A stretch of DNA of 64,000 bases from an uncultured Planctomycetia bacterium. Lineage in GTDB: Bacteria > Omnitrophota > Gorgyraeia > 2-02-FULL-51-18. The notes under the pieces were generated by a model. It worked only from the letters and a program-made list of their open reading frames with translations, did no database searches and was not told the DNA's origin. Numbering within the stretch: the first letter of the stretch is position 1; every line of letters begins with the position of its first letter. Both the position numbers and the translations under genes were made by a program. The stretch spans positions 97,085 through 161,084 of the forward strand of contig CAZSGP010000001.1 of the NCBI GenBank assembly GCA_964606485.1. Reading direction: 5' to 3'. Below, piece after piece: positions 14,522 to 52,033 of the stretch.

Positions 14522-14529
14522 TCATTCGG

Positions 14530-15243: not shown

Positions 15244-15254
15244 AGAAGGAAGAA

Positions 15255-18191: not shown

Positions 18192-18192
18192 C

Positions 18193-22332: not shown

Positions 22333-25300
22333 ATGATTAATTTGTGGCGAAACTTACAATGTCATAAGCGGCGCAGCGCTCGAATCGCGGCGATGGGGAT
22401 GATGCTGATTTTTCTAGGATCTCCATGCGGACTCGTGTGGGCCTTGCCACAAGGGCAAGATGTCATTAACGGTGATGTCTCTTTCACAAATCCTGATGCC
22501 AATACACTGAATATAAATATCAACAGCGATCAATCTATCATTCAATACAACTCGTTCAATATCGCGGCCGGCGAAACGGTTAACTTCTTTATGCCATCAA
22601 CGGACGCTTTTTCTTTGAACCGCGTGGTCGCCGGCGGGGACTCACAGATTTTTGGAAATCTTTTCGCAAACGGAAATTTAATTTTGTTAAATCAAAATGG
22701 AATTAATTTTGGGGCCGCCGCACAAGTTAACGTTGGAAGTTTGATGGCTTCCACGCAAAATCTTTCGAACGTTGATTTTTTAAACAGACAGTATATTTTT
22801 GCGGGAACTGACAACAATCCAAATTCGTTTATTTCAAACGAAGGCAATATCACCACTTCAAACGGCGGCTTTGTTGTTTTAGCCGCCGACGCCATTAGAA
22901 ACACAGGAACGATCGAAGCGCCGCTAGGCACCGTTATCTTAGCCGGCGGAAAGAATGTCACAGTCAACCTGACAAACGATGGTTTGGTTAACGTGGCGAT
23001 CGACGAAGCCGTCGCTCAAAATGTTTTGGACAGTGACGGCAACCCCATCACGGACCAACTCAAGAATTCAGGGACATTGCGAGGCGCCACGGTTAAGTTG
23101 GACGCCAAGTCTGCCGCTAACATCTACCAAAGTGCTATTAACCAGGATGGCATTATTAGGGCCGATCAAGTCTCTGTTGGTCAGGATGGAATCGTCGAGA
23201 TTACCGCCAGTGGCTTGGTCAAGCTTGGGGGATCTATTGCGGCCGACCAGACAAGCGTTCAATCTGACACTAATATAACGGTAGATACGGCGCTCATCAC
23301 AAGCGGGAACACCATTTTAGCCGCAAAGAACAATATTGATGTTAATGCGAATGTAACGACAGATTCCGGAAGCCTCTCCTTCTTGGCAGATTCTGATTTG
23401 AATGGTCAGGGCGCATTCACGCAGGCTATCGGGACAACGATTAGAACAACCACATTTGGAGATATCACCATTCAAGGTTCTGGTGAGAGTGTTTTAGGAA
23501 ACATTGTTTCGGCGGGAAACATCACGCTTCAGGACGGGGGAGCTTCTGCACATTTCACCCAACTGTCTGGCTCTGTTCTGCAAAGTGGCGGATCCTTCAC
23601 GATTGATAATGGAGTTAGCTATTCCGCATCTAACGCGGTGTTAAGCATTTCAAAAGATTGGTTGAATTATGGATCGTTTGACGCTGGTTTGTCGTTAGTC
23701 AAATTAGTCGGTAGTTTGGATGCAAGCGTTATGGCAAACAATGTATTCAATGATCTCGAAATTATTGAACCGAGCAAAAATGTAGAATTTGAGGCGGGTA
23801 AAACTCAAGAAATTACGGGAACCTTAACCGTTAGTGGTCAAAATGGGAAGATGGTAAATATTCAGTCAACTAACAACGAAATCCCAGCCATCCTATCTAT
23901 TTTGGGAAATTATCGCATTGAATATGCGCAAGTCAAAAATATCACAAGCGTCAATATCCATGGACCCCCGACTGCGGGGCTTCATTTGCAAAACTTAGGC
24001 GGAAACACCGGGTGGGATTTTTCTAGTGGTGTGGTTTTTATTGGCAGTGTATCCTCAGATTGGTCGGATGCTCTCAATTGGGATGGAGGATTTGTCCCTG
24101 GAGCCTTCGATCTCGTTCGTTTTAATGCTTCCTCTGGCAGTGCTTCCTTATATATAGACACGGCAATTGCTGGTCTCTTCCTTGAGTCTGACTATACCGG
24201 AACTTTGAGCCTCGGATCGTCTACCTTAACCATTTCAGGAGATTTTTCTGTTAGAGGTGGAAATTTCCAGGCCGGAACTTCAACTGTCGTTTTTAATGAC
24301 GCCAGCCAAATTTCTCATATTCTGGGTAACAATACGTTTTACAACTTTATGTCCGTCACACCAAGTAAAGTGATTCAATTTGAAGCTGGCAAAACTCAAA
24401 CAATTTTGGGGAATTGGAAACTTGAAGGAGCGTTCGCTCAGCACGTACGTCTAGTCTCCACGGAATCGGGAAATCAATGGTTAGTGGACCCAAGAGGTAG
24501 TTATGATATCAGCTATTCCTGGGTAGAGGATTCGCATAGCTTAAGACCTGGGGATATTATCATGACAGAATCATCCAATCGTGGAAATAGTATCGGCTGG
24601 GATCCGGTCGCAACCTGGACGGGTGCTAGCAGTGCCAATTGGAATGACGCCGGAAACTGGAGCGGGTTGGGTGGAGTGACTCCGGGTATGGGCGACGATC
24701 TGTTATTTCCGGATGGAGCGGCGAATCTTTCAAATACCAATGATTTTGCGGCGGACACTCTTTTTAACTCACTGACCATTTCCGGAAGCGGCTACACGCT
24801 AGCTGGCAATTCGATCATTATTGGTGCGGGTGCGGCTGGCATCACGGATAGCAGTGCAGCGGGATCCAATACGATCAGTCTTCCTATAAAGTTCTTGGCA
24901 ACGCGCACGATCACGGTAACCGATTCTGCCACGACGCTTACGATTAGCGGCATCATTAGCGATGCGGGCGGCCTCACAAAAGAAGGCGCCGGAAAACTGA
25001 TTCTTTCGGGAGCCAACACTTACTCAGGGACAACCAAAGTCAATTATGGTGTTCTAAATATTCAAAATGCCAATGCTTTGGGAACCATCGCCGGCGGAAC
25101 TGAAGTGGTTGAGGGGGCGGGACTTCAGATACAAGGAAATATTGCGGTCGGCGCTGAAGCGCTGCTTTTAAGAGGAAACGGTTTTAGTTCTGCGGGTGCT
25201 TTGAGAAATATCAGCGGTGATAATAGTTACGGCGGCGCCATTACACTGGTTGCAGGAGGTGCTGAGATTTCATCGGATGCTGGCACGCTGACCCTAAACG

Positions 25301-28300
25301 GCGGTATCAGCGGTGCATTTCCTCTCATCGTAGACGGAGCTGGAAATGTAACTTTTGCTTCAACCCCCATCGCGACGGCAGCGGGAACGCTTACCAAAAA
25401 TGGAGCGGGTACGCTGACCTTTAATTTTACAAATACGTTCACAGGCCTTACAACGCTGAATGCCGGAACGCTTCTTTACGGAACGCACAATGCGCTTTCA
25501 ACAGGGGCCGTTACAGTTCTTGGAGGCACGTTTGATGTTGCGACATTTTCAGACAGCATCGGAACGTTGACACTCAATGGCGGAGTTGTTACCGGTTCAA
25601 CAGGCGTGTTGAGCAGTACAGCGACCTACGATGTTCGCAGTGGAACGATTAGCGCGGTACTCGGCGGTGCGGTGGGACTGACTAAAACGACGAGCGGCAC
25701 CGTCGTTCTTTCAGGGGCCAATATTTATACGGGCACAACAACGGTGAGCGCGGGTATTTTATCGGTTCAAAATAATTTAGCTCTGGGAGATATTGATGGC
25801 GCAACGACGGTGACTTCGGGAGCCACTTTGCAGATTGATGGAAATGGTCTATCGATTGCCGAAGCCATTAGCACCTTAAACGGCGTGGGTGTTGTAAGTG
25901 GTACGTCGGGTGTGGGCGCCCTAAGAAATCTTGCTAATAATAATACTTGGACCGGCGCTATTGCGCTTGGCGCGGCCTCAACTATTTACTGCGATGCAGG
26001 AACGCTCACGATTAGCACAACTGGTATTACCGGGAATACTTTTGGTTTAACCGTAGACGGCCCTGGAAATGTGACACTTAGCACCGCTCCGCTCAACACC
26101 ACAACCGGAACCTTGACTAAAAATGGTGCGGGCACCTTGACCATGCAATCATTTAATACCTACACGGGCGTCACCACAATTAATGCAGGAACGCTGGTGT
26201 TAAGCGGCAATGGAGCTTCGACTTTATCTACGTTCACCATTAACTCTGGAGCTGCGCTGACACTTGATAATAGCGGTACGACCGGAGTGGACCGCATGGG
26301 TGATACTTTGGCTGTCACGATGAACGGTGGTGATTTGAATATCATCGGTCACGGCAGTACGTACACGAATATGATCTTGGGCGCTCTGACGTTGAGCTCG
26401 GGAGAAAATACAATCACCATCACTCCAGGTGCCGCTGGGACCGGTGTAACCTTTGCAAGTTTTAGCCGCAGTGCAGGTGCCACGGCTCTTTTTAGAGGAA
26501 CGAGTTTTGGTTCTGCGCCTGGCGCCGGTGTTTCTAGCCTTTTCTTTGTGACCGAATCGGGTCTGTTGACCGGCGGCGAAGGTTCGGCCAACAGCACAAC
26601 GATCAGCATCATCGCCGGAGCGTTTGGGGACAACTCTTTATCCGGAACAGGTACGGATATGGTCACGTACAATGAAGGAAATTCCAACGGACTCAGGCTT
26701 TTAAATGGAGCGGGTTTTAGCGGGGAGTATTTGTCAAACTCCTTTACAACGACAAATGCCAATGTGAAGCTGACGGCTGCGACCAATGCCGCAACCGGAA
26801 CCATCAATTCGCTGATCATCGATTCCGGAGGCTCAATTGCGGACGCAGGAACCGCCGAGACCATTACGTTTACGACGGGAAATATTTTAAGTTTATCAGG
26901 CAATTCAGGAATTAGCGGCGCCAACACCACATTAGCATTTGGCACGGTCCAAGCATCAACACGAGTGGTAGGGGATCTGGCGATTTCAGCCGCAATCACC
27001 GGAACCGGCGGACTTGCCACTGGCGGAGCGGGCACGTTGACGTTTAGCACCGCACAAGCCTACACCGGACTCACCTCGATCAATGACACAACTTTTCTTT
27101 ATGTGATAGACAATGCTATTAGCACCGGTGCGTTGACGATCAATAACGGAATACTTAATTTATCAACCTTCTCCGATAGCGTGGCCGCGGTGATATTGAC
27201 CAGCGGTTCGATCAGCGGCTCTGGGACTTTAACCAGCACCGCAAGTTTCACCGTTTCAAGCGGGACTGTTACCGCTACTTTGAACGGCGGGGTGGCGCTA
27301 ACAAAAACGACAGTCGGAACTGTGACGCTGTCCGGAAATAATTCCTATACCGGCTTGACGACGATCAGCGCTGGCGTGCTCAAATTGGGTGCGACCGGTA
27401 GCGGTGCGAATACGCCGCTTGGGACGACCGGCGCGGGAACATCCGTGACGAGTGGCGCCGCGCTTGATTTGAATGGCTTTACACTTGCAACTGCAGAAGG
27501 ATTGACGATTAACGGAACGGGTATTGCGCTGGGCGGCGCTTTAATGAATAGCTCAGCAACTCCTGTCAGTTATAGCGGCAACATTATTCTGGGGGCCGCC
27601 TCACGCATTAATGCAAATTCGGGGACTTTAACGCTGAATGGCGGTATTTCAGGGGCGTTTGGCCTGACGGTTGGAGGAGCCGGCAATAGCACAATTTCAG
27701 GCGTAATCTCAACTGTCACTTCACTCACAAAAGATGGAACAGGCACGCTCACTCTCTCGGGTGACAACACGATGGCAGGGACTACTACCGTCAGCGTGGG
27801 AACTCTTAAACTGGGCGCAAATGGCGGCGGCACCAATACTCCACTGGGCACGACGGCGGCTGGCACGTCTGTGACGAGTGGCGCTGTGCTAGATCTCAAT
27901 GGATTTTCTTTGGGAACAACAGAAGGATTAACGATTAACGGTACCGGCATTAATGGCGGCGGCGCGCTGATCAATAGCGCAGTCGGCACTCCGACCTATC
28001 AAGGAGCTATTGCTCTCGGAAGTGCGAGCACGATTACCTCAAATAACGGAGCCATCACTTTATCGGGCGCATTTTCTGGCGCATTCGCGCTGACACTCGA
28101 TGGCACTTCCAGCGGCACCATTAGCGGCGTTGTGGGAACCGGAGCGGGAACAATCACAAAAGTTGGCACTGGCACATGGACACTTTCAAATGCGGGAAGC
28201 ACTTACACGGGCCTCACCACGATTAGTGCTGGCACTCTTAAGCTAGGAGCCAACGGTGGCGCCACCAATACCCCACTGGGCACAACAGGTGGAGCAACCG

Positions 28301-31300
28301 TAGTCAACAGTGGAGCGGTGCTTGATTTAAATGGGTTCGCGCTCGGAACTGCTGAAGGCCTAACTTTAAATGGGATGGGTATTGCCAACGGCGGCGCTCT
28401 CATCACCAATGCCGCGTCCACATTTCTGGGAGCTATTACACTTGCAAGTGACACGCGCATTGCAAACTCCGGCGCTGGAACTGCGCTCACATTGAACGGC
28501 GGCGTTACGACAGCTGGCTTTTTGTTAACGGTCGGCGGCGCGGGTAATACTACCTTTTCGACTGCCGCTGTTGCGGGAGCGGGTGGAATTATCAAAGAGG
28601 GTGCGGGAACACTCACTATGAACGTATCTTCAAGTTATACGGGTGCGACACTGGTGAAGGCCGGAACATTTACTTATGGTGCGTCCGGTCTTTTGGCAGT
28701 GACCGCGTTAACGGTGACCGGAGGGACGTTTGATATCAATACAATTTCCGACGCCATTGGAACGGTAACCCTGCTTGGTGGAAGCATCACCGGAACAACC
28801 GGCGTTTTAACGTCTACCGGATACACGGTTGAAAACGGAACGATTGATGCGATTCTTGCAGGTGCCGTAACCTTGGTTAAAAATACAACTGGAACGGTGA
28901 CGATGACGAAAGCCAACACCTACAGCGGCGCTTCCACGATCAATGCTGGTACGCTGACATTGAGCGGATCGGGAACGGCAGTGAGTTCCGCGTTTACCAT
29001 AAACTCAGGCGCAACACTGACGCTTGATAATAGCGGAACCAATGTCGCAAGCCGCTTGGGCGACGCGGTCGCACTGACCATGAATGGTGGAAATTTTTAT
29101 TTTATCGGGAATGGCGCCGCGGCCGCATCTGAAACAGCGGGCGCGCTGACGTTGTCATCCGGGTACAACATCGTAACCGTTACGGTGGGCGCCGGCGGAT
29201 CTACGATTATGACCTTTGCCAGTGCGTCGAGAACGGCGGGCGCTACTGTTTTATTTCGTGGAAATAGTCTTGGAAATGCGCCTGCCGCAAATGTTGCCAA
29301 TATTCGTTTCACCAATGCCACCGGATTGGGGTTAACGGGAGCCAACACCACCGCGACCGATAAACCCATTGTTCCTTATGCGTTCGGCGAGCCTTCCGGA
29401 GGCGGGACGGGAACGAGTTTTGTCACGCACAATGTTGATCTTGTTGGAAACGCCGCAAACACAAACGGTATTCGTCCGCTCGATCTCGCCACCGAGTACG
29501 TCGCCGATTCTTTTGCAGCAGGTTCTGCTAATAAAAACGTCATCATCCAAAACGCAACCAATGCTGCCGCCCAGACGATTAATTCACTGCTTCTTTATAA
29601 CGCCAGTGTTTCCTACGCCAGTGATGTAACGATCACCGTGACATCGGGTGCCGTGGCTCGTGTGCTCGCAGGAGATATTGAAGCAACCTCTGCAAGCGCC
29701 ACCCGCATATTGGCGTTCGCAGGTGTTGAAGCGAAAATTTTCGCCATCGATTCGTTTTATATTGCTCCAAATATTACCGGAACTGCGGGGCTCAGCACGG
29801 GCGGCACGGGTACGCTGACATTTCCCGGCGCGGGCACGTTTGGTGTTGTCAAAGCTTACACGGGAACCACGACGATTAATTCCGGCACGCTGACCTATGG
29901 ACTGAGTGATGCCTTGTCTAGCGGAGCGGTGACGGTTGTCGGCGGAACTTATAATCTTGCGGGATTTTCAGATAGTATCGGTGCGCTCACAATGAATGGG
30001 GGGACGGTTACAACCGGAGCTGGTACGCTGACGCTCGGCGGTACTGTGACGACGCTCGCCTCAATTAGAGAGTCGACGATTAGCGGGAATCTTGGACTTG
30101 GCGCTAATAGAATTTTTGACGTGGCCGATGGTCTTGTTGTAAATGATCTGGTTGTGTCGGCCGTGATTAGCGGGGGCTTTACCGTTACAAAAAGCACCGG
30201 AACCGGCACACTCGTTTTTTCAGGTGACAATACCTACACGGGCGTAACCACTATTTCAAGCGGAATTTTTAAATTAGGTGCGAGCGGCGGCGGAGTGAAC
30301 ACGCCTCTTGGCACAACCGCCGCAGGAACGGTGATCTCTAACGGTGCGGCATTTGATTTAAATGGATTTACACTTGGGACTGCTGAAGGGTTAACCATCA
30401 ATGGAACCGGCGTTTCCTCGTCCGGCGCTTTGTTTAATAGTTCGGGAACCGCCGTAACCTATAGCGGATTACTCGTGATCGGCGCAACCGCGCCAACGAT
30501 TACGGCAAATAATGGGAATATCAATATATCCAATGTCGGAACTATTACCGGTGCTGCGGTGGTGCTGACATTGAGCGGCTCCGGCAATGGGTCGGTTACG
30601 AGCATCATTGGAACACCTACAAGCGGTTTAACAAAAACGGGTGCTGGCACTTGGACACTTTCCGGTGATAGCACTTATGCCACCGCAACCACCATCAGTG
30701 CAGGTGTTATAAAACTGGGCGCTGCCGGCGGCGGCACCAACACACCGCTCGGAACAACCGCGGCGGGAACGGTGGTCTCAAGCGGCGCGGCGCTCGACTT
30801 GAACGGTTTTACTTTGGGCACAGCCGAAGGTTTAACCATTAGCGGCGCGGGCATTGTGAGTGGTGGAAGCGTGGGCGCTTTGATTAACAGTTCAGGTAGT
30901 TCCGTGACATACAGCGGACAACTGTTATTAGGGGCCAGTTCCACAATCACCGCAAATAATGGAGATATTAATTTAAGCGCCGTCGGAACCATCACGGGCG
31001 CAGGTTTTGCGCTGACTTTGAATGGATCTGGAAATGGTTCACTAGCCAGTGTTGTTGGAACGGTAGGGGGTACAGTCGTTAAAAATGGCCAAGGCACCTG
31101 GACATTGTCCGGCTCCAGCACCTACACCGGAGCGACTACCGTGAATGCCGGAACTCTCAAGCTCGGAGCCACCGGTGGCGGTACGAACACGCCGCTTGGC
31201 ACGACTGGCACAGGAACCACGGTTAATGCCGGCGCCGTACTTGATTTAAATGGTTTTACATTGGGAACCACTGAGGGCTTGACGCTGAACGGAAGCGGTA

Positions 31301-34300
31301 TCAATAACGGCGGCGCTCTCGTAAATAATTCAGGCTCTGCTACCGGTTACAGTGGTGCCATCGTCATGGGTTCGGCCACGCGCATCACCAATTCGGGTGC
31401 CGGACTTTTGACGCTGAGTGGTGCTACTACAGGCGCTTTTAATCTTTCGGTAGGTGGCGCCGGCGATACCACGATCTCCGCAAATATTACGACGGCTGGA
31501 ATCACACTCACCAAAGATGGGGCGGGGACACTCACTTTAAGCGCTGCGAACGGCTTCACGGGACTCACTCGCGTTGACGCGGGCACTTTAAAATATGGCA
31601 TTGCCAACGCGTTAAACACGGGTGCTGTAACTATTGCTGGCGGTACATTGGACATCAGCGGATTTTCTGATACCAATCTTGGCGCGCTGACATTGATTAG
31701 CGGCTCGGTTATCAATAGCGGCGGCGCGGCAACCATTACTTCAACAGCAACATACACACTTGAAAGCGGTACGGTTAGTGCTGTTCTAGCCGGTGTCGGA
31801 ATTGCCTTAAATAAAAATACGGCCGGTACGGTGACGATTAATGCGAGCCAAACCTATACCGGAACAACAACCATTAATGCCGGTATTTTAACTTATGGAG
31901 CGAGCGGACTTTTAGCGGCAACTGCGATAAACGTATCGGGCGGTACCTACGACATCAATTCTATTTCCGACACCGTCGGCGCCGTAACGCTTACGAGCGG
32001 ATATATTACGGGCACCACCGGTGTTCTAACCGGCACGTCGTATGCCGTGCAGAGCGGCACGATATCCGCCATTCTCGGCGGTGCAGTGGCTTTAACCAAA
32101 ACGACTTCCGGCACAGTGATTTTGTCCGGCCTAAATACGTATACCGGTGTTACGACGATTACTGCCGGAACTTTAAGCGTTTCTGTTTTAGCGAACGGCG
32201 GCGCATCTAGCGGCATTGGTGCCGCTGCAGCCCTTTCCACTAATCTTGTGTTTAATGGCGGCACTTTGCAATACACGGGTACTGGGCACAGCACCGACAG
32301 ACTTTTTACCATCAACACAACAATTACGGCGATTATTGACGCGTCAGGTTCCGGAACCGCTTCGTTCACTGGCGCATCGATTACGTATCAAACTAACAAC
32401 ACGATCCATGGACTCACTCTTACCGGAAGAGGCAATGGCAGTTTTACTCCCGTGATCGCCAATATGGGAACAGGTGTTACCTCCGTTACTAAAAATGGAA
32501 CAGGCACTTGGACTCTGAATGGCACAAGCACTTACACGGGAACCACGACGGTGAATGCGGGCACTTTTGCCTATGGAGCCAGTAATATACTGGCCGTAAC
32601 GGCCTTAACCGTTTCCGGAGGAACCTTTAGCATGGCCGGCTTCTCGGATACGATCGGAGCGGTCAATCTTACGAGTGGGAGCATTACCAGCACCACCGGT
32701 GTTTTGACAGGAACTTCGTATGCCGTGCAAAGAGGGACGATCAGCGCCATTCTTGCCGGTGCGGTCACGATGACGAAAACGACTGCGGGTACCGTGGTGT
32801 TATCCGGCGTAAATACATACTCGGGCGTCACCACCATCACGGCCGGTGTATTGAGTGTCGGCACAATTGGCAATGGTGGTGTCTCAGGCAATCTCGGAGC
32901 AGCTGCCGTGGCGGTGGGCAATATCGTGCTAAACAGCACCGGCGTTTTGCAGTATACCGGATCGACTGCTTCAACAAACCGCGGCTTTACATTAACGGCG
33001 GCTGCTACTTCTTTTATTGATATCACGCAAAGCGGAACCATTCTGACGGTTTCGGGAGGCAGTGCCGCCAATACCGGAGGGCTCACAAAGATTGGCGCCG
33101 GCACCTTAACATTTTCTGCGGCCGTTTCATACACCGGAACCACAACCATCACTGCCGGTACGCTCGCTTACGGCGCCGCCAATATTTTAAGCACCGGTGC
33201 TGTCACCGTTGATGGCGCTACTGCTGTTCTAGCCATGGGCAACAATCAATCGGATACCGTTGGCACTGTTACGGTTTCGAGCGGCGGCAGCATCACCGGA
33301 AGCGGAACTTCCGCACTCACGACCACTGGAACCTTTGAAATGCAAAGCGGCTCAGTGAGCGCAATCCTTGCCGGAGCCGTCGCTTTAAATAAAACGACTT
33401 CCGGAACCGTGACGCTTTCCGGTGTCAACACTTACACGGGTGTTACCACGATTAGCGCTGGAACATTGAGTGTCGGAACGATTGGAAACGGTGGCGTCGC
33501 TGGAAATCTCGGAGCTGCCGCCGTGGCAGTAGGAAATATCGTCATCGGCGGCACGGGAGTGTTGCAGTACACCGGCGGCACAGCTTCCACGAACCGCGGC
33601 TTCACCATCACCGCCGGTCAAACGGGCACGATTGATGTGAGCAATGGCGCAGCAACACTCACCATTTCAGGCGGAACCGCAACGAACTCGGGCGCCCTTA
33701 CAAAAATTGGAGCTGGCACTCTAACCTTTACGACGACTGCCGCGACTTACACTGGCACCACCACGATCAATGCGGGAACTTTGTCCTACGGCATGGCCAA
33801 TATGCTGAGCAGTGGAGCAGTCACCGTTGACGGAGCGACTGCGGTTCTGGCTCTGGGCCTTAATCAATCCGACACGGTCGGAACGGTTACAGTGGCGAAT
33901 GGTGGAAGCATCACCGGAACTGGAACCTCCTCACTGACTTCCACAGGCACCTTTGAAATGCAAAGCGGTTCGGTGAGTGCGATTTTGGCGGGGGCGACAA
34001 TTGTAATGAATAAAACCACCGCCGGGACGGTGACGCTTTCAGGAGTAAATACATTTACTGGTCTGACTACAATCAGCGCCGGAACATTAACCTATGGAGT
34101 CAATGATGCGTTGTCGAACGGCGGCGTGACCGTCTCTGGCGGAACGCTTAGTCTTTTAACTTTTAATGAAACGAATATTGGCGCGGTGACGCTGACAAGT
34201 GGATCCATCACGAGCACAACCGGTGTTTTGACGGGTACGTCTTACGCCGTGCAAAGTGGTTCGATCAGCGCAATTCTTGCCGGAGCCGTCGCTTTAAATA

Positions 34301-37300
34301 AAACGACTTCCGGAACCGTGACGCTTTCCGGTGTCAACACTTACACGGGTGTTACCACGATTAGCGCTGGAACATTGAGTGTCGGAACGATTGGAAACGG
34401 TGGCGTCGCTGGAAATCTCGGAGCTGCCGCCGTGGCAGTAGGAAATATCGTCATCGGCGGCACGGGAGTGTTGCAGTACACCGGCGGCACAGCTTCCACG
34501 AACCGCGGCTTCACCATCACCGCCGGTCAAACGGGCACGATTGATGTGAGCAATGGCGCAGCAACACTCACCATTTCAGGCGGAACCGCAACGAACTCGG
34601 GCGCCCTTACAAAAATTGGAGCTGGCACTCTAACCTTTACGACGACTGCCGCGACTTACACTGGCACCACCACGATCAATGCGGGAACTTTGTCCTACGG
34701 CATGGCCAATATGCTGAGCAGTGGAGCAGTCACCGTTGACGGAGCGACTGCGGTTCTGGCTCTGGGCCTTAATCAATCCGACACGGTCGGAACGGTTACA
34801 GTGGCGAATGGTGGAAGCATCACCGGAACTGGAACCTCCTCACTGACTTCCACAGGCACCTTTGAAATGCAAAGCGGTTCAGTCACGGCTATTTTGGCGG
34901 GGGCGGTGGCGCTGAACAAAACAACATCAGGCACAGTGACATTGACCGGAGTTAACACTTACTCTGGCATTACCACGATTACATCTGGCACGCTCAGCGT
35001 CGCGGCTGATTCCGGTCTCGGCACTGCTCCCGGTTCTCCCACAGCCGGACATCTCGCCTTTAATGGCGGCGCACTTCAAACGACAGCCGGTTTCACGCTT
35101 AATTCTAATCGTGGTGTGGCTCTTACGGGAGACGGCACTTTCTTGGTGGATCCTGCAACCACTCTTGTTTACAACGGAATTATTACGGGCACAGGAGCTC
35201 TCAGTAAAACAGGCACAGGCACACTGACACTGGGCGGCAGTGTGACGAGCGGCGGATTGACGGTGACTGCGGGAACGTTTGGTGCTTCCGGAGTTTCGTT
35301 GCTTGATGTGAACGGCAACGTCTTGATTAACGGCGGTACACTCACACCGCCCGCACTTAACTTTACAGTTTCAGGGGATTGGACAGTAAGCTCAGGCACT
35401 TTTAACGCGGGTTCAGGACGCGTGGTATTTGATGGATCAGGAACTCAACAAGTCAGTGTCGGCGGGCAAAGTTTTTATGAATTCACACACACGGGAAGCG
35501 GAACGGTTCAGCTGGTGACGAGTGCCTTCAGCGCAAACGCGTTTACGAATTCCAACGGAACCTTTAGTTTGAATGGTCAAAATTTCACGGTCTCAAGCTC
35601 TTCTTTTACGAACACCGCCAATATGGAACTTCAAGGCAATGAAACCGTTTCGATTAATTCTCCCTACGTCGTGGCCGGAACCTGGACTTACCGCGGCCGC
35701 AATATCGCTGAGACCTTGACGATTAAAGATTTCGGTGCGATTGATTATTACAATTTAACGATCAATGACACGAACGGCACCAAAGCAACGTTTAGCATTG
35801 CCGATTCTTTGGTGGTGAGCGGCACACTGACGCTTTCGGGCGGAAATCTCACGCAAGCGTCCGGATCAGGGAACACCATTACGGCGGCTATTTATGCTCA
35901 ATCGGGCGGCAGTACGTTTACGGGCGGTAACGCCGATATGACGATCAATGGAGATCTGGGTCTTTCGGGCGCTGATACTATTTTTACAACCTCCAGCGCG
36001 ACAACTCAGGTGATTACGCTGACGGTGAATTCGAGCGGCTCTGGCGAGCTCTTAATGGCTTCAGGAGCCACTCTTCGCGTGACGGGTTCCGGAACACCGG
36101 TGACCGGAACCGGAACGATCGATACGACCACCAACGGGAATAACACTTTTGAGTTTACAGGTGCGGCAGATATTTCAACAGCGAGCCCCTTTTACAATCT
36201 TTCTCTGATCGCCGTTCCATTTAGTCAGGGCGGAATCCTCACTTTAAATTATGATGAAAGCGCCATCACATCCGTTGTGATCGATACGACCAACGGCTTC
36301 GGATACTTTGGTACGGGTACAAGCCCCGGCATCATTATCAAAGTTCGTCTCGCCGATAACAGCCGCGTGGGCGCTTTAACACTCGCTTCAGGTGAAAATA
36401 ATTTAACCACCGCGGTGATGGACGGCCAATACGCCTATTTCGGAACCTATACCACTTCCGCAAAAGTGGTGAAAGTGGATCTGTCCACTTTCACGCGCGT
36501 GAGTGCTGTTTCGTTGAGTGCGGGTCAAGACTATCTCTATGCTTCCGTGGTCGACACCACCAATCATTTTGCTTATTTCGGAACTTACACCGCACCCGGC
36601 AAGATCATTAAGATCAACACCGCCTCCGGCAGTTTTGCTTATGTCGGAGAGTTGGACATGGGCTCGGTCGGAGCCAACGAAAGTTATTTTTATAACAATG
36701 CCGCGGTGCTCGACACCGAAAACAACTTTGCGTACTTTGGCACCTATACCGAGAATGGCGCAAGCGGCGCTTACGTTGTTAAAATCAACACCGCTCCGGC
36801 CGGTTTTGCTTATGTCGGCAATATTGCGCTTGCGAATGGAGAAGACAATATTGCCTCTGCGGTGATCGATCTTTCGGGGGCCACCAATTACGCTTATTTT
36901 GGAACCGACACCGCTCCTGGACAAATCGTAAAAGTGAATTTGAATACCTTTACGCGAGTCGGCGCCGCAACGGGCATTGTGGCCGGCGAAGACAATTTCA
37001 CATCCGCTGTGATCGACACCGCCAATCAATTTGCTTATTTTGGAACCGACACCGCTCCCGGAAAAATCGTGAAAATTGATCTCGCTACTTTTGCGAAGAC
37101 GTCTACCATCACTCTAAATTCGGGCGAAGATTATCTTTATTCTGCGGCGATTGACACCTCAAACAATTTCGCTTATTTCGGCAATGCCAATAACCCCGGC
37201 TACATCATCAAGGTGAATACCTCGACCGGCTCGTTTGCACGCGTTTCATCTTTGCAGACCAATGTCGCCGAAAACTGGATCAATTCCGCGGTCATCGATA

Positions 37301-38724
37301 CCTCCGCCGGATTCGCTTATTTTGGAACCTACAACGCACCGGGCGTCATTGTCAAAGTGAGACTTTCGGATAATTCCCGCGTGGGCGTGCTCACTCTGAG
37401 CGCCGGGGAAGATTATTTGAGCTCTGCGGTGATCGACACGACGAGTGCCACGCACTACGCCTATTTTGGAACCAATTCTAATCCGGGCACCATTGTTAAA
37501 ATCAATCTTTCCAGTTTTACGAGAGTGGGAGCGGCGACGGGGCTTGCCGCGACGGATGATTATTTTACCTCTGCTGTGATTTACACCAACACCTACGCGT
37601 ATTTTGGAACCAACACCGCGAGCGGTGCTTACATTGTTAAGATTGATCTGTCGAGCTTTTCCAAATCCGGAAGCAGTCTTCAGCTCAATAACGGAGAAGA
37701 TTATTTAACGTCGGCTGTTATCGACGGAACCGGTACTTTCGCGTATTTCGGAACCAACACTTCAACGGGCCATATTGTAAAGGTGAGTCTAGCTGGGTTA
37801 ACGCGGGTGGGTGAGATTTCGGGTTTGGCAACCGACGATCAGTTTTTCACCTCGGCCGTGATTGATAACACCAACAACTTTGCGTATTTTGGAACCAATG
37901 ATGCTAACGGTGCGACCGGAGCCTACATTGTTAAAATTAACACCAATACGTTCCAGAAAGTCGGCAGCAGCTTAGGCTTGAATGACGGCGAAGACTACCT
38001 GACCTCTGCGGTGATTGATGTGACCAATGGCTACGCTTATTTTGGAACGTATACGGATCCTGGAATTGTGGTGAAGATCAGGCTTTCAGATTTTACCCGC
38101 AACGCAGCCGTCACGTTGACCGCGGGCAACTCAAACTTGGCGGCCGCGGTGATTGACGTCACGAATAGCGCCGCTTACTTTGGAACCGACACGACGATTC
38201 CGGCCCGCGTGATCAAGATAAATTTAGGCGGCCAGATCCGGATTATCAGTCTACTCACGGTGACAAACAACCTTACAATCGGCGATCTTAGCACGCCGAC
38301 GCTCGTTGCCGCGCTGGCCAACATCTTAGTGGGTGGTAATTGGACGAATTACGGCACGTTTAGTGCGGGAACTTATACGGTAACGCTGAACGGCGGCGAT
38401 GGAGTCAACCAACATATTTATGGAAGCACAACTTTCTACAATTTGACCAAGGATATGTCCAGTGGAACGCAGGATGGCACGCTGACTTTTGAGTCTGGCG
38501 CCGGCAACCAAACCAATATTACGAATACGCTACTGCTCAAGGGCAACGCCAAGTATAACTTAAAACTTCGTTCCTCGAGCGCCGCGCAGTTTTATTTAAA
38601 CCCCACCAACACTGCGACCTTGAGCGACTTGAATATTCAAAACTCCAACAACGCTGGCGCATCTCTTACGGCCAATAGCTCGGTCAACAGCGGCGGCAAT
38701 TCCGGATGGACGGTTAATCCCTAG
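22333..38724 (+). CDS. Giant TpsA exoprotein (filamentous-hemagglutinin-like, 5463 aa)
   Basis: N-terminal TPS secretion domain (NGDVSFTNPDANTLNININSDQSIIQYNSFNIAAGETVNF...LNRVVAGGDSQIFGNLFANGNLILLNQNGINFGAAAQVNVGSLMASTQN). Then ~3500 aa of Gly/Thr-rich PATR-like beta-strand repeats (G.LTLSG.NTYTG.TT(I/V).AGTL). Then 18 C-terminal ~45-aa repeats (SAVID...FAYFGT.T.PG.IVKI.L..F.RVG). Confidence 0.9.
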   Translation: MINLWRNLQCHKRRSARIAAMGMMLIFLGSPCGLVWALPQGQDVINGDVSFTNPDANTLNININSDQSIIQYNSFNIAAGETVNFFMPSTDAFSLNRVVAGGDSQIFGNLFANGNLILLNQNGINFGAAAQVNVGSLMASTQNLSNVDFLNRQYIFAGTDNNPNSFISNEGNITTSNGGFVVLAADAIRNTGTIEAPLGTVILAGGKNVTVNLTNDGLVNVAIDEAVAQNVLDSDGNPITDQLKNSGTLRGATVKLDAKSAANIYQSAINQDGIIRADQVSVGQDGIVEITASGLVKLGGSIAADQTSVQSDTNITVDTALITSGNTILAAKNNIDVNANVTTDSGSLSFLADSDLNGQGAFTQAIGTTIRTTTFGDITIQGSGESVLGNIVSAGNITLQDGGASAHFTQLSGSVLQSGGSFTIDNGVSYSASNAVLSISKDWLNYGSFDAGLSLVKLVGSLDASVMANNVFNDLEIIEPSKNVEFEAGKTQEITGTLTVSGQNGKMVNIQSTNNEIPAILSILGNYRIEYAQVKNITSVNIHGPPTAGLHLQNLGGNTGWDFSSGVVFIGSVSSDWSDALNWDGGFVPGAFDLVRFNASSGSASLYIDTAIAGLFLESDYTGTLSLGSSTLTISGDFSVRGGNFQAGTSTVVFNDASQISHILGNNTFYNFMSVTPSKVIQFEAGKTQTILGNWKLEGAFAQHVRLVSTESGNQWLVDPRGSYDISYSWVEDSHSLRPGDIIMTESSNRGNSIGWDPVATWTGASSANWNDAGNWSGLGGVTPGMGDDLLFPDGAANLSNTNDFAADTLFNSLTISGSGYTLAGNSIIIGAGAAGITDSSAAGSNTISLPIKFLATRTITVTDSATTLTISGIISDAGGLTKEGAGKLILSGANTYSGTTKVNYGVLNIQNANALGTIAGGTEVVEGAGLQIQGNIAVGAEALLLRGNGFSSAGALRNISGDNSYGGAITLVAGGAEISSDAGTLTLNGGISGAFPLIVDGAGNVTFASTPIATAAGTLTKNGAGTLTFNFTNTFTGLTTLNAGTLLYGTHNALSTGAVTVLGGTFDVATFSDSIGTLTLNGGVVTGSTGVLSSTATYDVRSGTISAVLGGAVGLTKTTSGTVVLSGANIYTGTTTVSAGILSVQNNLALGDIDGATTVTSGATLQIDGNGLSIAEAISTLNGVGVVSGTSGVGALRNLANNNTWTGAIALGAASTIYCDAGTLTISTTGITGNTFGLTVDGPGNVTLSTAPLNTTTGTLTKNGAGTLTMQSFNTYTGVTTINAGTLVLSGNGASTLSTFTINSGAALTLDNSGTTGVDRMGDTLAVTMNGGDLNIIGHGSTYTNMILGALTLSSGENTITITPGAAGTGVTFASFSRSAGATALFRGTSFGSAPGAGVSSLFFVTESGLLTGGEGSANSTTISIIAGAFGDNSLSGTGTDMVTYNEGNSNGLRLLNGAGFSGEYLSNSFTTTNANVKLTAATNAATGTINSLIIDSGGSIADAGTAETITFTTGNILSLSGNSGISGANTTLAFGTVQASTRVVGDLAISAAITGTGGLATGGAGTLTFSTAQAYTGLTSINDTTFLYVIDNAISTGALTINNGILNLSTFSDSVAAVILTSGSISGSGTLTSTASFTVSSGTVTATLNGGVALTKTTVGTVTLSGNNSYTGLTTISAGVLKLGATGSGANTPLGTTGAGTSVTSGAALDLNGFTLATAEGLTINGTGIALGGALMNSSATPVSYSGNIILGAASRINANSGTLTLNGGISGAFGLTVGGAGNSTISGVISTVTSLTKDGTGTLTLSGDNTMAGTTTVSVGTLKLGANGGGTNTPLGTTAAGTSVTSGAVLDLNGFSLGTTEGLTINGTGINGGGALINSAVGTPTYQGAIALGSASTITSNNGAITLSGAFSGAFALTLDGTSSGTISGVVGTGAGTITKVGTGTWTLSNAGSTYTGLTTISAGTLKLGANGGATNTPLGTTGGATVVNSGAVLDLNGFALGTAEGLTLNGMGIANGGALITNAASTFLGAITLASDTRIANSGAGTALTLNGGVTTAGFLLTVGGAGNTTFSTAAVAGAGGIIKEGAGTLTMNVSSSYTGATLVKAGTFTYGASGLLAVTALTVTGGTFDINTISDAIGTVTLLGGSITGTTGVLTSTGYTVENGTIDAILAGAVTLVKNTTGTVTMTKANTYSGASTINAGTLTLSGSGTAVSSAFTINSGATLTLDNSGTNVASRLGDAVALTMNGGNFYFIGNGAAAASETAGALTLSSGYNIVTVTVGAGGSTIMTFASASRTAGATVLFRGNSLGNAPAANVANIRFTNATGLGLTGANTTATDKPIVPYAFGEPSGGGTGTSFVTHNVDLVGNAANTNGIRPLDLATEYVADSFAAGSANKNVIIQNATNAAAQTINSLLLYNASVSYASDVTITVTSGAVARVLAGDIEATSASATRILAFAGVEAKIFAIDSFYIAPNITGTAGLSTGGTGTLTFPGAGTFGVVKAYTGTTTINSGTLTYGLSDALSSGAVTVVGGTYNLAGFSDSIGALTMNGGTVTTGAGTLTLGGTVTTLASIRESTISGNLGLGANRIFDVADGLVVNDLVVSAVISGGFTVTKSTGTGTLVFSGDNTYTGVTTISSGIFKLGASGGGVNTPLGTTAAGTVISNGAAFDLNGFTLGTAEGLTINGTGVSSSGALFNSSGTAVTYSGLLVIGATAPTITANNGNINISNVGTITGAAVVLTLSGSGNGSVTSIIGTPTSGLTKTGAGTWTLSGDSTYATATTISAGVIKLGAAGGGTNTPLGTTAAGTVVSSGAALDLNGFTLGTAEGLTISGAGIVSGGSVGALINSSGSSVTYSGQLLLGASSTITANNGDINLSAVGTITGAGFALTLNGSGNGSLASVVGTVGGTVVKNGQGTWTLSGSSTYTGATTVNAGTLKLGATGGGTNTPLGTTGTGTTVNAGAVLDLNGFTLGTTEGLTLNGSGINNGGALVNNSGSATGYSGAIVMGSATRITNSGAGLLTLSGATTGAFNLSVGGAGDTTISANITTAGITLTKDGAGTLTLSAANGFTGLTRVDAGTLKYGIANALNTGAVTIAGGTLDISGFSDTNLGALTLISGSVINSGGAATITSTATYTLESGTVSAVLAGVGIALNKNTAGTVTINASQTYTGTTTINAGILTYGASGLLAATAINVSGGTYDINSISDTVGAVTLTSGYITGTTGVLTGTSYAVQSGTISAILGGAVALTKTTSGTVILSGLNTYTGVTTITAGTLSVSVLANGGASSGIGAAAALSTNLVFNGGTLQYTGTGHSTDRLFTINTTITAIIDASGSGTASFTGASITYQTNNTIHGLTLTGRGNGSFTPVIANMGTGVTSVTKNGTGTWTLNGTSTYTGTTTVNAGTFAYGASNILAVTALTVSGGTFSMAGFSDTIGAVNLTSGSITSTTGVLTGTSYAVQRGTISAILAGAVTMTKTTAGTVVLSGVNTYSGVTTITAGVLSVGTIGNGGVSGNLGAAAVAVGNIVLNSTGVLQYTGSTASTNRGFTLTAAATSFIDITQSGTILTVSGGSAANTGGLTKIGAGTLTFSAAVSYTGTTTITAGTLAYGAANILSTGAVTVDGATAVLAMGNNQSDTVGTVTVSSGGSITGSGTSALTTTGTFEMQSGSVSAILAGAVALNKTTSGTVTLSGVNTYTGVTTISAGTLSVGTIGNGGVAGNLGAAAVAVGNIVIGGTGVLQYTGGTASTNRGFTITAGQTGTIDVSNGAATLTISGGTATNSGALTKIGAGTLTFTTTAATYTGTTTINAGTLSYGMANMLSSGAVTVDGATAVLALGLNQSDTVGTVTVANGGSITGTGTSSLTSTGTFEMQSGSVSAILAGATIVMNKTTAGTVTLSGVNTFTGLTTISAGTLTYGVNDALSNGGVTVSGGTLSLLTFNETNIGAVTLTSGSITSTTGVLTGTSYAVQSGSISAILAGAVALNKTTSGTVTLSGVNTYTGVTTISAGTLSVGTIGNGGVAGNLGAAAVAVGNIVIGGTGVLQYTGGTASTNRGFTITAGQTGTIDVSNGAATLTISGGTATNSGALTKIGAGTLTFTTTAATYTGTTTINAGTLSYGMANMLSSGAVTVDGATAVLALGLNQSDTVGTVTVANGGSITGTGTSSLTSTGTFEMQSGSVTAILAGAVALNKTTSGTVTLTGVNTYSGITTITSGTLSVAADSGLGTAPGSPTAGHLAFNGGALQTTAGFTLNSNRGVALTGDGTFLVDPATTLVYNGIITGTGALSKTGTGTLTLGGSVTSGGLTVTAGTFGASGVSLLDVNGNVLINGGTLTPPALNFTVSGDWTVSSGTFNAGSGRVVFDGSGTQQVSVGGQSFYEFTHTGSGTVQLVTSAFSANAFTNSNGTFSLNGQNFTVSSSSFTNTANMELQGNETVSINSPYVVAGTWTYRGRNIAETLTIKDFGAIDYYNLTINDTNGTKATFSIADSLVVSGTLTLSGGNLTQASGSGNTITAAIYAQSGGSTFTGGNADMTINGDLGLSGADTIFTTSSATTQVITLTVNSSGSGELLMASGATLRVTGSGTPVTGTGTIDTTTNGNNTFEFTGAADISTASPFYNLSLIAVPFSQGGILTLNYDESAITSVVIDTTNGFGYFGTGTSPGIIIKVRLADNSRVGALTLASGENNLTTAVMDGQYAYFGTYTTSAKVVKVDLSTFTRVSAVSLSAGQDYLYASVVDTTNHFAYFGTYTAPGKIIKINTASGSFAYVGELDMGSVGANESYFYNNAAVLDTENNFAYFGTYTENGASGAYVVKINTAPAGFAYVGNIALANGEDNIASAVIDLSGATNYAYFGTDTAPGQIVKVNLNTFTRVGAATGIVAGEDNFTSAVIDTANQFAYFGTDTAPGKIVKIDLATFAKTSTITLNSGEDYLYSAAIDTSNNFAYFGNANNPGYIIKVNTSTGSFARVSSLQTNVAENWINSAVIDTSAGFAYFGTYNAPGVIVKVRLSDNSRVGVLTLSAGEDYLSSAVIDTTSATHYAYFGTNSNPGTIVKINLSSFTRVGAATGLAATDDYFTSAVIYTNTYAYFGTNTASGAYIVKIDLSSFSKSGSSLQLNNGEDYLTSAVIDGTGTFAYFGTNTSTGHIVKVSLAGLTRVGEISGLATDDQFFTSAVIDNTNNFAYFGTNDANGATGAYIVKINTNTFQKVGSSLGLNDGEDYLTSAVIDVTNGYAYFGTYTDPGIVVKIRLSDFTRNAAVTLTAGNSNLAAAVIDVTNSAAYFGTDTTIPARVIKINLGGQIRIISLLTVTNNLTIGDLSTPTLVAALANILVGGNWTNYGTFSAGTYTVTLNGGDGVNQHIYGSTTFYNLTKDMSSGTQDGTLTFESGAGNQTNITNTLLLKGNAKYNLKLRSSSAAQFYLNPTNTATLSDLNIQNSNNAGASLTANSSVNSGGNSGWTVNP
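22450..23250 (+). other. TPS (haemagglutination-activity) domain of TpsA
   Basis: Motifs listed in the parent CDS. Approximate boundaries. Confidence 0.75.
33368..33971 (+). repeat. Copy 1 of a perfect ~604-bp direct repeat within tpsA (period 909 bp)
   Basis: Minus-strand artefact ORFs 33385-33621 and 34294-34530 translate identically. The nucleotide strings cttgccggagccgtcgctttaaataaaacg ... gaaatgcaaagcggttc are identical at 33368-33971 and 34277-34880. Confidence 0.8.
34277..34880 (+). repeat. Copy 2 of the perfect ~604-bp direct repeat within tpsA
   Basis: See copy 1. Flanks diverge (…SVSAILAGATIVMNK… vs …SVTAILAGAVALNK…). Confidence 0.8.
36200..38235 (+). repeat. 18 tandem ~45-aa repeats at the TpsA C-terminus (in-frame coding repeat)
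   Basis: Consensus L..GED(Y/N)L.SAVID..N.FAYFGT.T.PG.IVK(I/V).L..F.RVG, counted from the translation. May form a beta-propeller or beta-solenoid. Confidence 0.7.
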
Positions 38725-40748: not shown

Positions 40749-41413
40749 ATCTCCTCGTTGAAATAGCGGATATTTGCGCTTGGTACGCGCACCGCTGTGC
40801 AAACTCCGTCGTTCTATGCCTCAAAGAAATTTTTCGTTCGATCGAGGATTATCTCCAGGACAGGAAACTTGGGATTCGGACCTGTTATGTTCATTCGGAT
40901 TTGGTGGAACGATCACTTTATCAAGATGAGATTCTCTACAAACCGACCAGTTTTCACCGCATCCGGAAAATGATGGAGCATTTAAAACTGGGTTCTCAAG
41001 ATGTATTTGTGGATATTGGCTGCGGCAAGGGGCGAGTGGTTTGTATGGCGGCGCGAGAACCCATCAAGAAAGTAGTTGGGCTTGAGCTAAAAAAAGTGTT
41101 GGCCGATACAGCGGAACAAAATTTGAGTACTTTAAAGGAAAAAAAATCTGAAGGCCTGATTCTTCGGGGAGATGTTCTGGCGCAGGATCTGTCCGAAGGA
41201 ACTGTGTTCTTTATGTACGATCCCTTTTTCTTTAAAACATTTAGCCAGGTTATTGAAAATATTCATCAAAGCGTGATCCGCTTTCCTCGTTGCGTGCGAA
41301 TTGTTTATTTTGACCAGCGCTATGGCGACTACTTGGATTCTCTGGACTGGCTAAAATCCGAAGGGGAAATCGGACACACCCGGATTTTTGTGTGGACCTA
41401 TAAACCGTCTTGA
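40745..41413 (+). CDS. Small class I SAM-dependent methyltransferase
   Basis: Motif I VFVDIGCGKGRVV. Acidic post-I residue in VVGLELKK. Translationally coupled to the oxygenase-RRE gene (4-nt overlap). Confidence 0.6.
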   Translation: MNLLVEIADICAWYAHRCANSVVLCLKEIFRSIEDYLQDRKLGIRTCYVHSDLVERSLYQDEILYKPTSFHRIRKMMEHLKLGSQDVFVDIGCGKGRVVCMAAREPIKKVVGLELKKVLADTAEQNLSTLKEKKSEGLILRGDVLAQDLSEGTVFFMYDPFFFKTFSQVIENIHQSVIRFPRCVRIVYFDQRYGDYLDSLDWLKSEGEIGHTRIFVWTYKPS

Positions 41414-45262: not shown

Positions 45263-45278
45263 TATATATTTAGAAGTA

Positions 45279-46697: not shown

Positions 46698-46698
46698 C

Positions 46699-48126: not shown

Positions 48127-48129
48127 TTT

Positions 48130-51984: not shown

Positions 51985-52033
51985 ACTTACTGGTGATAAT
52001 TTTTGATTACTATTAATAATAATTAATTATCTT

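Follow-up and report, generated by a model that had tools for sequence, protein, structure and literature searches.

The open reading frame (ORF) at positions 22333-38724 of a 64,000-nt stretch of contig CAZSGP010000001.1 (GenBank assembly GCA_964606485.1; the whole stretch is called the window here) encodes a genuine two-partner-secretion (TPS) exoprotein, TpsA, of an Omnitrophota bacterium. TpsA belongs to an established class, the adhesin-like fibres of type Vb secretion, and varies it by its cargo, an array of FAYFGT-type repeats from an uncharacterised and widespread beta-propeller family. The most unusual aspect of the locus, however, is not this array but the setting of the TPS pair, which is nested inside a lasso-peptide cluster and whose transporter gene, tpsB, is fused in frame to a lasso leader-peptidase (B2) domain. 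Coordinates of all features are collected in Table 1.

A first-pass annotation of the window had described an ORF of 5,463 aa with a canonical TPS domain and a TpsB partner upstream, and all of this holds. A single uninterrupted ORF with an ATG start is found on the forward strand at 22333-38724, and the same start codon is used in the gene call on a short-read contig of the same sample (Logan contig _4157). Residues 1-37, read by eye rather than with a predictor, have the basic n-region, hydrophobic core and cleavage site (between VWA and LP) of a signal peptide. The TPS domain that follows scores above the curated cut-offs of both PF05860 (88.7 bits, cut-off 33.5, E 7.6e-25) and TIGR01901 (61.2 bits, cut-off 29.1, E 6.7e-17), with the NPNG-type motif present as the variant NQNGI at residue 120. 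The tpsB ORF ends 117 nt upstream of tpsA and is taken as its partner because it carries POTRA_2 (residues 222-293) and ShlB (residues 359-671) domains directly upstream; its barrel has the VRGY motif of loop 6, and VRGYPxSDY is invariant in the TpsB alignment. The assignment to the phylum agrees with the relatives: the nearest ones of the TpsA N-terminus (P0133, P0134 and P0136) are labelled Candidatus Omnitrophica or Omnitrophota, and most of 80 genome loci retrieved through the TpsB alignment are Omnitrophota too, the remainder being unnamed or Planctomycetia-labelled metagenome-assembled genomes (MAGs).

The cargo had been described as 18 tandem repeats of ~45 aa making up the last ~650 residues. 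A motif search gives 14 units of 44-54 aa instead, with FAYFGT-type motifs at residues 4656, 4700, 4746, 4799, 4853, 4900, 4946, 4994, 5042, 5088, 5136, 5183, 5234 and 5280, and the array spans residues ~4632-5309, so that 154 residues (5310-5463) follow it. The repeat consensus proposed at the time agrees with the sequence of the aligned units, which share a mean pairwise identity of 47% (range 32-68%). At the DNA level the units are 60-81% identical, too divergent for Tandem Repeats Finder to report any array, and it follows that the array is not an artefact of repeat collapse or assembly.

Structure prediction, suggested with the original description, was run on an alignment (A1) of residues 4620-5310 with 44 homologues (45 members in all). 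The AlphaFold2 model is all-beta, with four strands per unit, a mean pLDDT of 93.5 and a pTM of 0.86. Its top Foldseek matches in the Protein Data Bank (PDB) are all two-propeller proteins with 2 x seven blades (CFAP52, the Pwp2/Utp proteins, Utp21 (4nsx) and Aip1 (1nr0)), at E ~1e-18 to 1e-21, ~10% identity and TM scores of 0.5-0.66 (0.62/0.66 for 4nsx). Comparison with viral models gave generic propeller matches only, among them a COG3391-type phage protein that superposes on one propeller (TMt 0.74). Together, model and matches indicate two tandem seven-bladed beta-propellers, formed by blades 1-7 and 8-14. Of the two folds that had been guessed at, propeller blades are thereby supported and a beta-solenoid is excluded.

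To which propeller family do the blades belong? The first reading placed them outside the named families, rightly: the array has no match among Pfam and NCBIfam models, no family of solved structure covers it, and none of the named propeller families WD40, YWTD/Ldl_recept_b, YVTN, NHL, Kelch, PQQ and DUF6923 reaches its cut-off on the window array. A scan of the 45 members of A1 likewise gave no consistent family (DUF6923, a 'repeat of unknown function', in 3 of the 45 and Beta-prop_ACSF4 in 3 of the 45; matches to NSs in 5 and to DUF742 in 7 are taken as spurious). When the A1 profile was compared with all PDB sequences, the matches were weak, the best being the LRP2 YWTD propeller (E 1e-5 across ~3.5 blades), with LRP6 (E ~0.06) and the lactonase YbhE (1ri6, E 0.13) further down. 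The array thus shares its predicted fold with Aip1, Utp21, CFAP52, the YWTD/LDL-receptor class B propellers and the YncE/COG3391 propellers, but differs from them in sequence (~10% identity, no WD40, YWTD or YVTN model match), in location and in biology. On this evidence the FAYFGT repeat forms a branch of the beta-propeller superfamily that is uncurated and has no solved structure; it may be a remote relation of YWTD-type blades.

Uncurated as it is, the repeat array is not novel, as had been thought, since other TpsA proteins of Omnitrophota have the same 14-blade module, as do secreted proteins by the thousand. A word-indexed search with residues 4619-5463 (an 845-aa query) gave more than 700 proteins, the best at E 6e-219; identity is 40-48% across ~79% of the query, a stretch that covers the entire array. 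Because all 14 units align to hundreds of proteins, with E down to 1e-219, the array cannot be due to chance. This search gave only proteins shorter than ~1,500 aa, the giant relatives being recovered through a search of cluster representatives and through locus scans. Exhaustive HMMER searching of 1.84 billion cluster representatives (50% identity) returned 3,037, 2,116 and 1,208 of them at E<=1e-3, 1e-10 and 1e-30, respectively. Among the named sources are Acidobacteria, Patescibacteria, Bathyarchaeia, Poribacteria, Sumerlaeota, Schekmanbacteria, Mycolicibacterium and Dokdonella, and the module is combined with Calx-beta, DUF4214, Big_3_5, BACON_2, PKD, DUF11, SLH, cohesin and FGE-sulfatase domains. 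Exactly 14 blades are detectable in 78 of the 120 best homologues, and nearly all of 30 inspected N-termini resemble signal peptides. The blades share the motif SAVID-x3-GFAYFGT-x-T-x-PG-x-VVKV, which continues in the family consensus as x-LSDFTRVG.

The propeller pair is thus a portable extracellular module, shared across many phyla by thousands of proteins, mostly surface proteins with a signal peptide. Members such as P0001 (the hypothetical protein DMF74_04825 of an acidobacterium) and P0083 (a 'BACON domain-containing protein' of Dokdonella ginsengisoli) have the blade motif and the 40-48% identity in common with the window protein; they differ in being proteins of 700-1,500 aa with Ig-like, Calx-beta or BACON domains, whereas here the module sits near the end of a TPS fibre. 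A literature search for the FAYFGT or AYFGT motif found nothing relevant. With ~1,200-3,000 clusters at 50% identity in bacteria and archaea, this is a sizeable extracellular family that has neither a Pfam or NCBIfam model nor a solved structure, and a family model combined with a ligand screen would annotate thousands of proteins.

Are the propellers enzymes? Many bacterial seven-bladed propellers are, and the double propeller could be a glycan lyase, a hydrolase or a lactonase-like enzyme, making the fibre a surface-tethered catalyst that acts, for example, on the envelope or polysaccharide of prey. The weak likeness to YbhE fits this, as does the likeness to phage proteins named 'Lactonase, 7-bladed beta propeller' and 'COG3391', and cell-wall digestion has been proposed for giant proteins of Omnitrophota (bioRxiv 10.1101/2023.11.21.568195). 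Against it, identity to any solved enzyme is ~10%, Pfam and NCBIfam give no enzyme-family match at all, and the invariant or near-invariant columns of A1 (the D of AVID, AYFG, an L and the E of GE) all lie within the structural motif that recurs in each blade; no blade-specific, non-repeated residues stand out in the alignment, and there is no blade-specific conserved polar cluster. With conservation limited to the motif that every blade repeats, the alignment favors a module for scaffolding or binding over a single-site enzyme, and a catalytic role is unlikely.

Between the TPS domain and the propellers, most of the protein had been described as PATR repeats. PATR is indeed the sole family detected from residue ~880 to residue ~4200, in 24 significant stretches (1 + 8 + 12 + 3), and Pfam scans of all 5,463 residues gave nothing beyond TPS and PATR. 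The beta-rich region between the TPS domain and this shaft holds two modules of ~130 aa (residues 432-561 and 622-756) that BLASTP against the whole protein relates to the C-terminal module, and such post-TPS modules are conserved in other Omnitrophota TpsA proteins. On the far side of the shaft, the stretch before the propellers is also related to the C-terminal module by BLASTP, and its residues ~4480-4610 are beta-rich (pLDDT 74-94 in an AlphaFold2 model of residues 4330-5463). The C-terminal 154 aa themselves resemble residues 432-561, 622-756 and 4336-4431 and, more weakly, the whole shaft; all these copies came from BLASTP, a jackhmmer self-search for the module having returned none. The same module type is present in multiple copies in other Omnitrophota TpsA proteins. 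By sequence, then, the end of the protein resembles a shaft-like, beta-helix-like module and is not toxin-like. Because these shaft-like residues follow the array, the propeller region lies near the end of the shaft and not at the extreme C-terminus.

This bears directly on the possibility of contact-dependent inhibition (CDI), in which the protein would be a CdiA-type toxin with an unrecognised toxin domain at its C-terminus. The window pair shares with CdiA/CdiB/CdiI systems a very large TpsA and a TpsB partner, and its last 154 aa have no family assignment. But these residues are like shaft modules repeated here and in other TpsA proteins, unlike a polymorphic toxin; the Pfam scans found none of the FHA-1/FHA-2 (Fil_haemagg) repeats, PT-VENN or DUF637 domains; and a regular-expression search of TpsA for VENN, VDNN, ELYN, NEALV, LYVN and DAMV had zero matches. 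No immunity-sized ORF lies downstream, where the next ORF encodes 333 aa and is convergent, with 8 bp between the two stop codons, as first reported. The earlier statement that toxin and immunity modules are lacking is thus borne out (no FHA repeats, VENN-type or pretoxin motif, toxin domain, immunity gene or small downstream ORF), and a CDI toxin is hardly credible.

Closer counterparts are the FHA/HMW1-type TpsA proteins with their FhaC-type TpsB partners, with which the window pair shares the signal peptide and TPS domain, the adjacent POTRA-ShlB transporter with its VRGY motif, the very long beta-helical passenger and a functional region far from the TPS end. It differs from them in having a PATR shaft in place of FHA repeats, a double propeller as cargo, an Omnitrophota host and a B2 domain on TpsB. 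The same repeat type forms the passengers of PATR autotransporters (type Va; PF12951/TIGR02601), but these have a C-terminal 12-strand barrel, of which no Pfam or NCBIfam match was found in the last 963 aa of TpsA, whose predicted export is through the separate TpsB.

Nor is the combination of TPS domain and propellers peculiar to the window: at least three other Omnitrophota TpsA proteins have it. P0267 (3,990 aa; locus L171 of a JGI metagenome) has a TPS domain at residues 57-319 and 14 FAYFGT blades at residues 2266-2916; a tpsB gene precedes it and a convergent CHASE2 gene follows. P0255 (3,600 aa; locus L172, NCBI GCA_964467905.1) has a TPS domain at residues 6-291 and 31 blades at residues 960-2640. 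A third TpsA, in an Omnitrophota MAG (L034), has blades from residue ~1470, where the contig stops inside them. From these proteins it follows that the order TPS domain, shaft, FAYFGT propellers, shaft module is a recurrent design. P0255 is the first of two tandem TpsA genes (L172 10001-28560; 3,600 and 2,580 aa), and no TpsB was found within 10 kb upstream of the pair; its 31 blades exceed two propellers' worth. The L034 blades (11774-16669) are near-identical among themselves (SAIIDQPNQLAYFGT.TSPGIIVKINL.SFTRVGALTLNTGE), which suggests recent blade amplification; because of such amplification, genes with near-identical FAYFGT blades would usually be fragmented in assemblies.

What, then, does the fibre do? 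The likeliest role, by analogy, is adhesion: TpsA would be a long fibre whose propeller head binds a ligand. The steps that such a role requires (Sec export, TPS-POTRA recognition, vectorial translocation and display of the head) are drawn from what is established for type Vb systems. The preprotein would pass the inner membrane via Sec, and its TPS domain would dock on the POTRA domains of TpsB. The chain would then be threaded vectorially through the TpsB barrel, folding outside as a PATR beta-helical fibre. With roughly 25 residues and 0.48 nm per coil, the shaft of 3,460 residues would be ~60-70 nm long. It would hold the double propeller far from the cell surface as a ligand-binding head, and so let the bacterium adhere to other cells or to a polymer at a surface. 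A host-dependent or predatory lifestyle has been proposed for Omnitrophota, and adhesion would fit this.

Several points weigh against this picture. The term adhesin draws on architecture and on analogy. The propellers are not at the C-terminus and may decorate the shaft instead of tipping it (in P0267, ~1,000 shaft residues follow them), and in this protein class either end of the mature fibre may be the distal one. The partition into 7 + 7 blades was not seen directly, but is inferred from the Foldseek matches and the conserved count of 14; the last 154 aa, modelled without an alignment, had a pLDDT of 30-40, and no fold was obtained for them. Finally, the nesting in a lasso cluster and the B2-TpsB fusion mean that the function might be tied to the lasso peptide.

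That tpsB and tpsA are nested inside a canonical lasso-peptide cluster of the kinase/nucleotidyltransferase type had gone unnoticed in the first-pass annotation. Of the core components, B2 (81.7 bits with PF13471; 86.4 bits with NF033537 lasso_biosyn_B2, cut-off 33) and the cyclase score above their cut-offs. The small PqqD-family protein that serves as B1 is recognised by PF05402 only, its 71.4 bits with NF033536 (lasso_PqqD) being under the cut-off of 80. The Cys82 and His117 columns of B2 are invariant in its alignment (A3). In the 210-nt gap between cyclase and kinase lies a 53-aa precursor that reads MSESQSKKNQSHSKKQSKKSYQSPKVTVYGSVSKLTG followed by AKAVGKKRDGSGTKKT; the Lys-rich leader ends in SYQSPKVTVYGSVSKLTG and has Y(-17)xxP(-14)xV(-12) and T(-2), which line up with the known YxxPxL leader motif at -17 to -12 (PMC10368454). 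No other YxxPxL-type motif was found in the window. The predicted core, AKAVGKKRDGSGTKKT, is net cationic and has Ala1 and Asp9, consistent with a predicted nine-residue lactam ring, and its C-terminal Thr is a possible target of the kinase. Precursors of the same type are found at the same position in three related loci (L125, L104 and L121).

The 80 metagenomic relatives of B2 mostly show the order PqqD, B2, cyclase, [precursor], kinase, nucleotidyltransferase. Judged by this order, ~21 kb has come to separate B2 from the cyclase in the window, a span now occupied by tpsB, tpsA and the genes for a beta-lactamase-like protein, an oxygenase fused to a second PqqD/RiPP recognition element (RRE) domain, where RiPP stands for ribosomally synthesised and post-translationally modified peptide, and a methyltransferase. 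The last two are presumed to be lasso tailoring enzymes, and the oxygenase-RRE fusion suggests leader-guided hydroxylation of the precursor; none of the 80 related B2 loci contains a counterpart of the methyltransferase. Nor does the cluster contain an ABC exporter gene, the sole ABC genes seen being ~7 kb downstream (52620-55819), among polysaccharide genes. The paeninodin-like clusters and the bsf cluster of Bradymonas sediminis (PMC10368454) are alike in having B1, B2, C, kinase, nucleotidyltransferase and a YxxPxL-type precursor, but lack the ~21 kb between B2 and C, the B2-TpsB fusion and the absence of an in-cluster ABC exporter that set the window apart.

The fusion itself is plain. B2 (residues 1-145) reads through, with no intervening stop, into a hydrophobic stretch that ends AYA/VD. 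In the alignment, this stretch falls on the N-terminal signal peptides of TpsB homologues that lack the fusion (P0123-P0127). The same in-frame fusion is found in P0122, a protein 44-48% identical that is encoded on two ENA metagenome contigs (L002/L003), preceded by a PqqD (in L003, 51% identical to that of the window) and followed by a TpsA with a ~65% identical TPS domain. Its occurrence in two independent metagenomes, together with an identical Logan contig for the window, rules out a lone frameshift artefact. In a third lineage, B2 and TpsB are separate, overlapping ORFs; it is represented by L010 (an Omnitrophica MAG) and L113, two loci that share 98% identity and have ~49-52% identity with the other two lineages. 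The order PqqD-B2-TpsB-TpsA is thus kept in three Omnitrophota lineages, with B2 and TpsB fused in two of them. B2 and TpsB would be translationally coupled neighbours, and loss of the B2 stop codon would have been tolerated because signal-peptidase cleavage would part the two products. Literature searches for lasso peptides together with two-partner secretion, or with Omnitrophota, found nothing relevant; the PqqD-B2-TpsB-TpsA association with its in-frame fusions is unreported.

Two candidates for the substrate of this arrangement were rejected. TpsA itself is ruled out as a substrate of the RRE and B2, YxxPxL being absent from its N-terminus and from that of its L003 orthologue. A conserved, divergently encoded 58-aa hydrophobic protein lies just upstream of PqqD in the P0122 lineage (L002 9445-9621; L003 87-263, reverse strand); it is without a YxxPxL motif and was ruled out as a lasso precursor.

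Could the TPS pair be a working part of the lasso system? B2-TpsB would then couple leader cleavage to an outer-membrane channel, the fibre would contact a target cell, and the cationic lasso peptide AKAVGKKRDGSGTKKT would be delivered to it or presented. The placement of tpsB and tpsA after B2 and before the cyclase, in a B1-B2-C-A-kinase-nucleotidyltransferase cluster that is canonical in other respects, speaks for such a coupling, as do the order kept in three diverged lineages (TpsB 48-52% identical), two of them with the fusion, and the cluster's lack of its own ABC exporter gene. However, lasso maturation is cytoplasmic while TpsB works from the periplasm outward, and the retained AYA/VD signal peptide predicts that the fusion is cut by signal peptidase. 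B2 and TpsB are separate genes in the third lineage, TpsA lacks the leader motif at its N-terminus, propeller-bearing TpsA proteins occur elsewhere without lasso genes, and B2 is present at 1 of the 80 Omnitrophota TpsB genome loci and absent from the other 79. The synteny may also be neutral hitch-hiking. A functional coupling therefore seems improbable, and it is a long shot that B2-TpsB and the propeller-tipped fibre form a contact-dependent device by which a host-dependent nanobacterium delivers or presents its cationic lasso peptide. If functional, the conserved PqqD-B2-TpsB-TpsA arrangement would link RiPP maturation with type Vb secretion; failing all other readings, the locus is an ordinary adhesin-type TpsA.

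A fibre of this kind differs from the giant proteins described so far in the phylum. The Archaeovorin- and Dockerin-type giants of Omnitrophota exceed 8,000 aa, carry SecA-like, C39 or S8 domains and adjoin type II/IV secretion-like loci (bioRxiv 10.1101/2023.11.21.568195). They have in common with the window protein the phylum, very long beta-rich surface chains and a proposed attachment to cells, whereas TpsA is, by prediction, a classical substrate of type Vb secretion; the preprints on these giants make no mention of TPS, PATR or lasso. The window thus adds a complete large surface protein with predicted TPS secretion in Omnitrophota, unlike the type II-associated giants. It does so in a phylum whose members are thought to live attached to other cells.

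How far can the length of TpsA be trusted? The window has no N bases, but the PATR region contains two 649-nt copies, 98% identical (~11 differences) and 909 nt apart, and the Logan contigs of SRR12487046, which match the window at 100%, divide tpsA there. Contig _4157 holds PqqD, TpsB and the first 3,688 tpsA codons and ends at 33396, and contig _619 starts at 34852 with the last 1,290 codons, so that the break falls inside the duplication. The copy number of the 909-nt unit, and hence the exact length of TpsA, is uncertain. The FAYFGT array lies wholly within one Logan contig.

Mis-assembly had been named from the start as what would undo the description of the gene, and the short-read break lends it some substance: an assembler could have fused two different PATR genes through the near-identical repeat, since both contigs are 100% identical to the window and end, or resume, in the duplicated segments. 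Yet the identical 5,463-aa protein is present on a 546-kb NCBI contig, the ~11 differences make the two copies resolvable, and other complete TpsA proteins join a TPS domain with FAYFGT propellers. Moreover, the two contigs complement each other across the lasso cluster: one has B1/B2 and the other has the cyclase, precursor, kinase and nucleotidyltransferase, and in relatives these genes are adjacent. The join and the array are thus backed, and a chimera is very unlikely.

Table 1. Features of the tpsBA locus and the surrounding lasso-peptide cluster (window positions)
Feature	Position	Strand	Basis
PqqD-family RRE (lasso B1), 99 aa; stop codon overlaps start of next ORF	19787-20086	+	PF05402, 50.2 bits (cut-off 23.4)
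TpsB partner ORF	20083-22215	+	POTRA_2 41.6 bits, ShlB 99.3 bits
Lasso B2 leader-peptidase domain (transglutaminase-like), aa 1-145 of TpsB ORF	20083-20517	+	NF033537, PF13471
TpsB proper: internal signal peptide at aa ~148-170 (...SSVAYA/VD), POTRA, ShlB-type 16-strand barrel	20518-22215	+	Pfam, alignment
tpsA, ATG start, uninterrupted, 5,463 aa	22333-38724	+	window ORF
TpsA predicted signal peptide, aa 1-37 (...GLVWA/LPQGQDV)	22333-22443	+	read from sequence by eye
TPS secretion domain, aa 38-276	22444-23160	+	PF05860 + TIGR01901
Post-TPS beta-rich modules, aa 277-870	23161-24942	+	BLASTP, comparison with other TpsA
PATR-repeat shaft, aa ~871-4330, presumed parallel beta-helix fibre	24943-35322	+	24 PF12951 stretches
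Two 649-nt copies, 98% identical, 909 nt apart	33349-33998 and 34258-34907	+	self-comparison, PATR region
Pre-propeller beta-rich linker and modules, aa 4331-4631	35323-36225	+	AlphaFold2, BLASTP
Predicted propeller 1: FAYFGT blades 1-7, aa 4632-4980	36226-37272	+	motifs, AlphaFold2, Foldseek
Predicted propeller 2: FAYFGT blades 8-14, aa 4981-5309	37273-38259	+	motifs, AlphaFold2, Foldseek
C-terminal 154-aa module, aa 5310-5463, and stop codon	38260-38724	+	BLASTP
Class-A beta-lactamase-like serine hydrolase (Beta-lactamase2 family), 333 aa, convergent to tpsA	38733-39734	-	PF13354, E 5.2e-39
2-oxoglutarate (2OG)-Fe(II) oxygenase fused to second PqqD/RRE domain	39804-40748	+	profile scans
DOT1/PCMT-like methyltransferase	40745-41413	+	profile scans
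Lasso peptide cyclase (C)	41410-43293	+	NF033535, 667.9 bits (cut-off 525)
Lasso precursor, 53 aa, in 210-nt cyclase-kinase gap	43315-43476	+	leader motif + core
HprK-like kinase	43503-44315	+	profile scans
NTP_transf_5 nucleotidyltransferase	44312-45262	+	profile scans

No counterpart of the convergent beta-lactamase-like gene was found in any of the related loci. With the NCBIfam class A model its product reaches 69.9 bits, far under the cut-off of 200, and it has an N-terminal extension of ~90 aa.

The island of lasso and TPS genes is flanked on both sides by surface-polysaccharide genes (12641-19759 and 45222-63955). These encode Wzy_C, GT2 enzymes, C-methyltransferases, GDP-mannose dehydratases, DegT aminotransferases and an EpsL-like barrel, as well as a Wza-like exporter, a Wzc-like tyrosine kinase, an ABC-2/ABC pair, a NusG-like protein and an ATP-grasp protein. 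Upstream of the polysaccharide genes lies a second very large ORF (3067-11445), which encodes 2,792 aa of TPR repeats.

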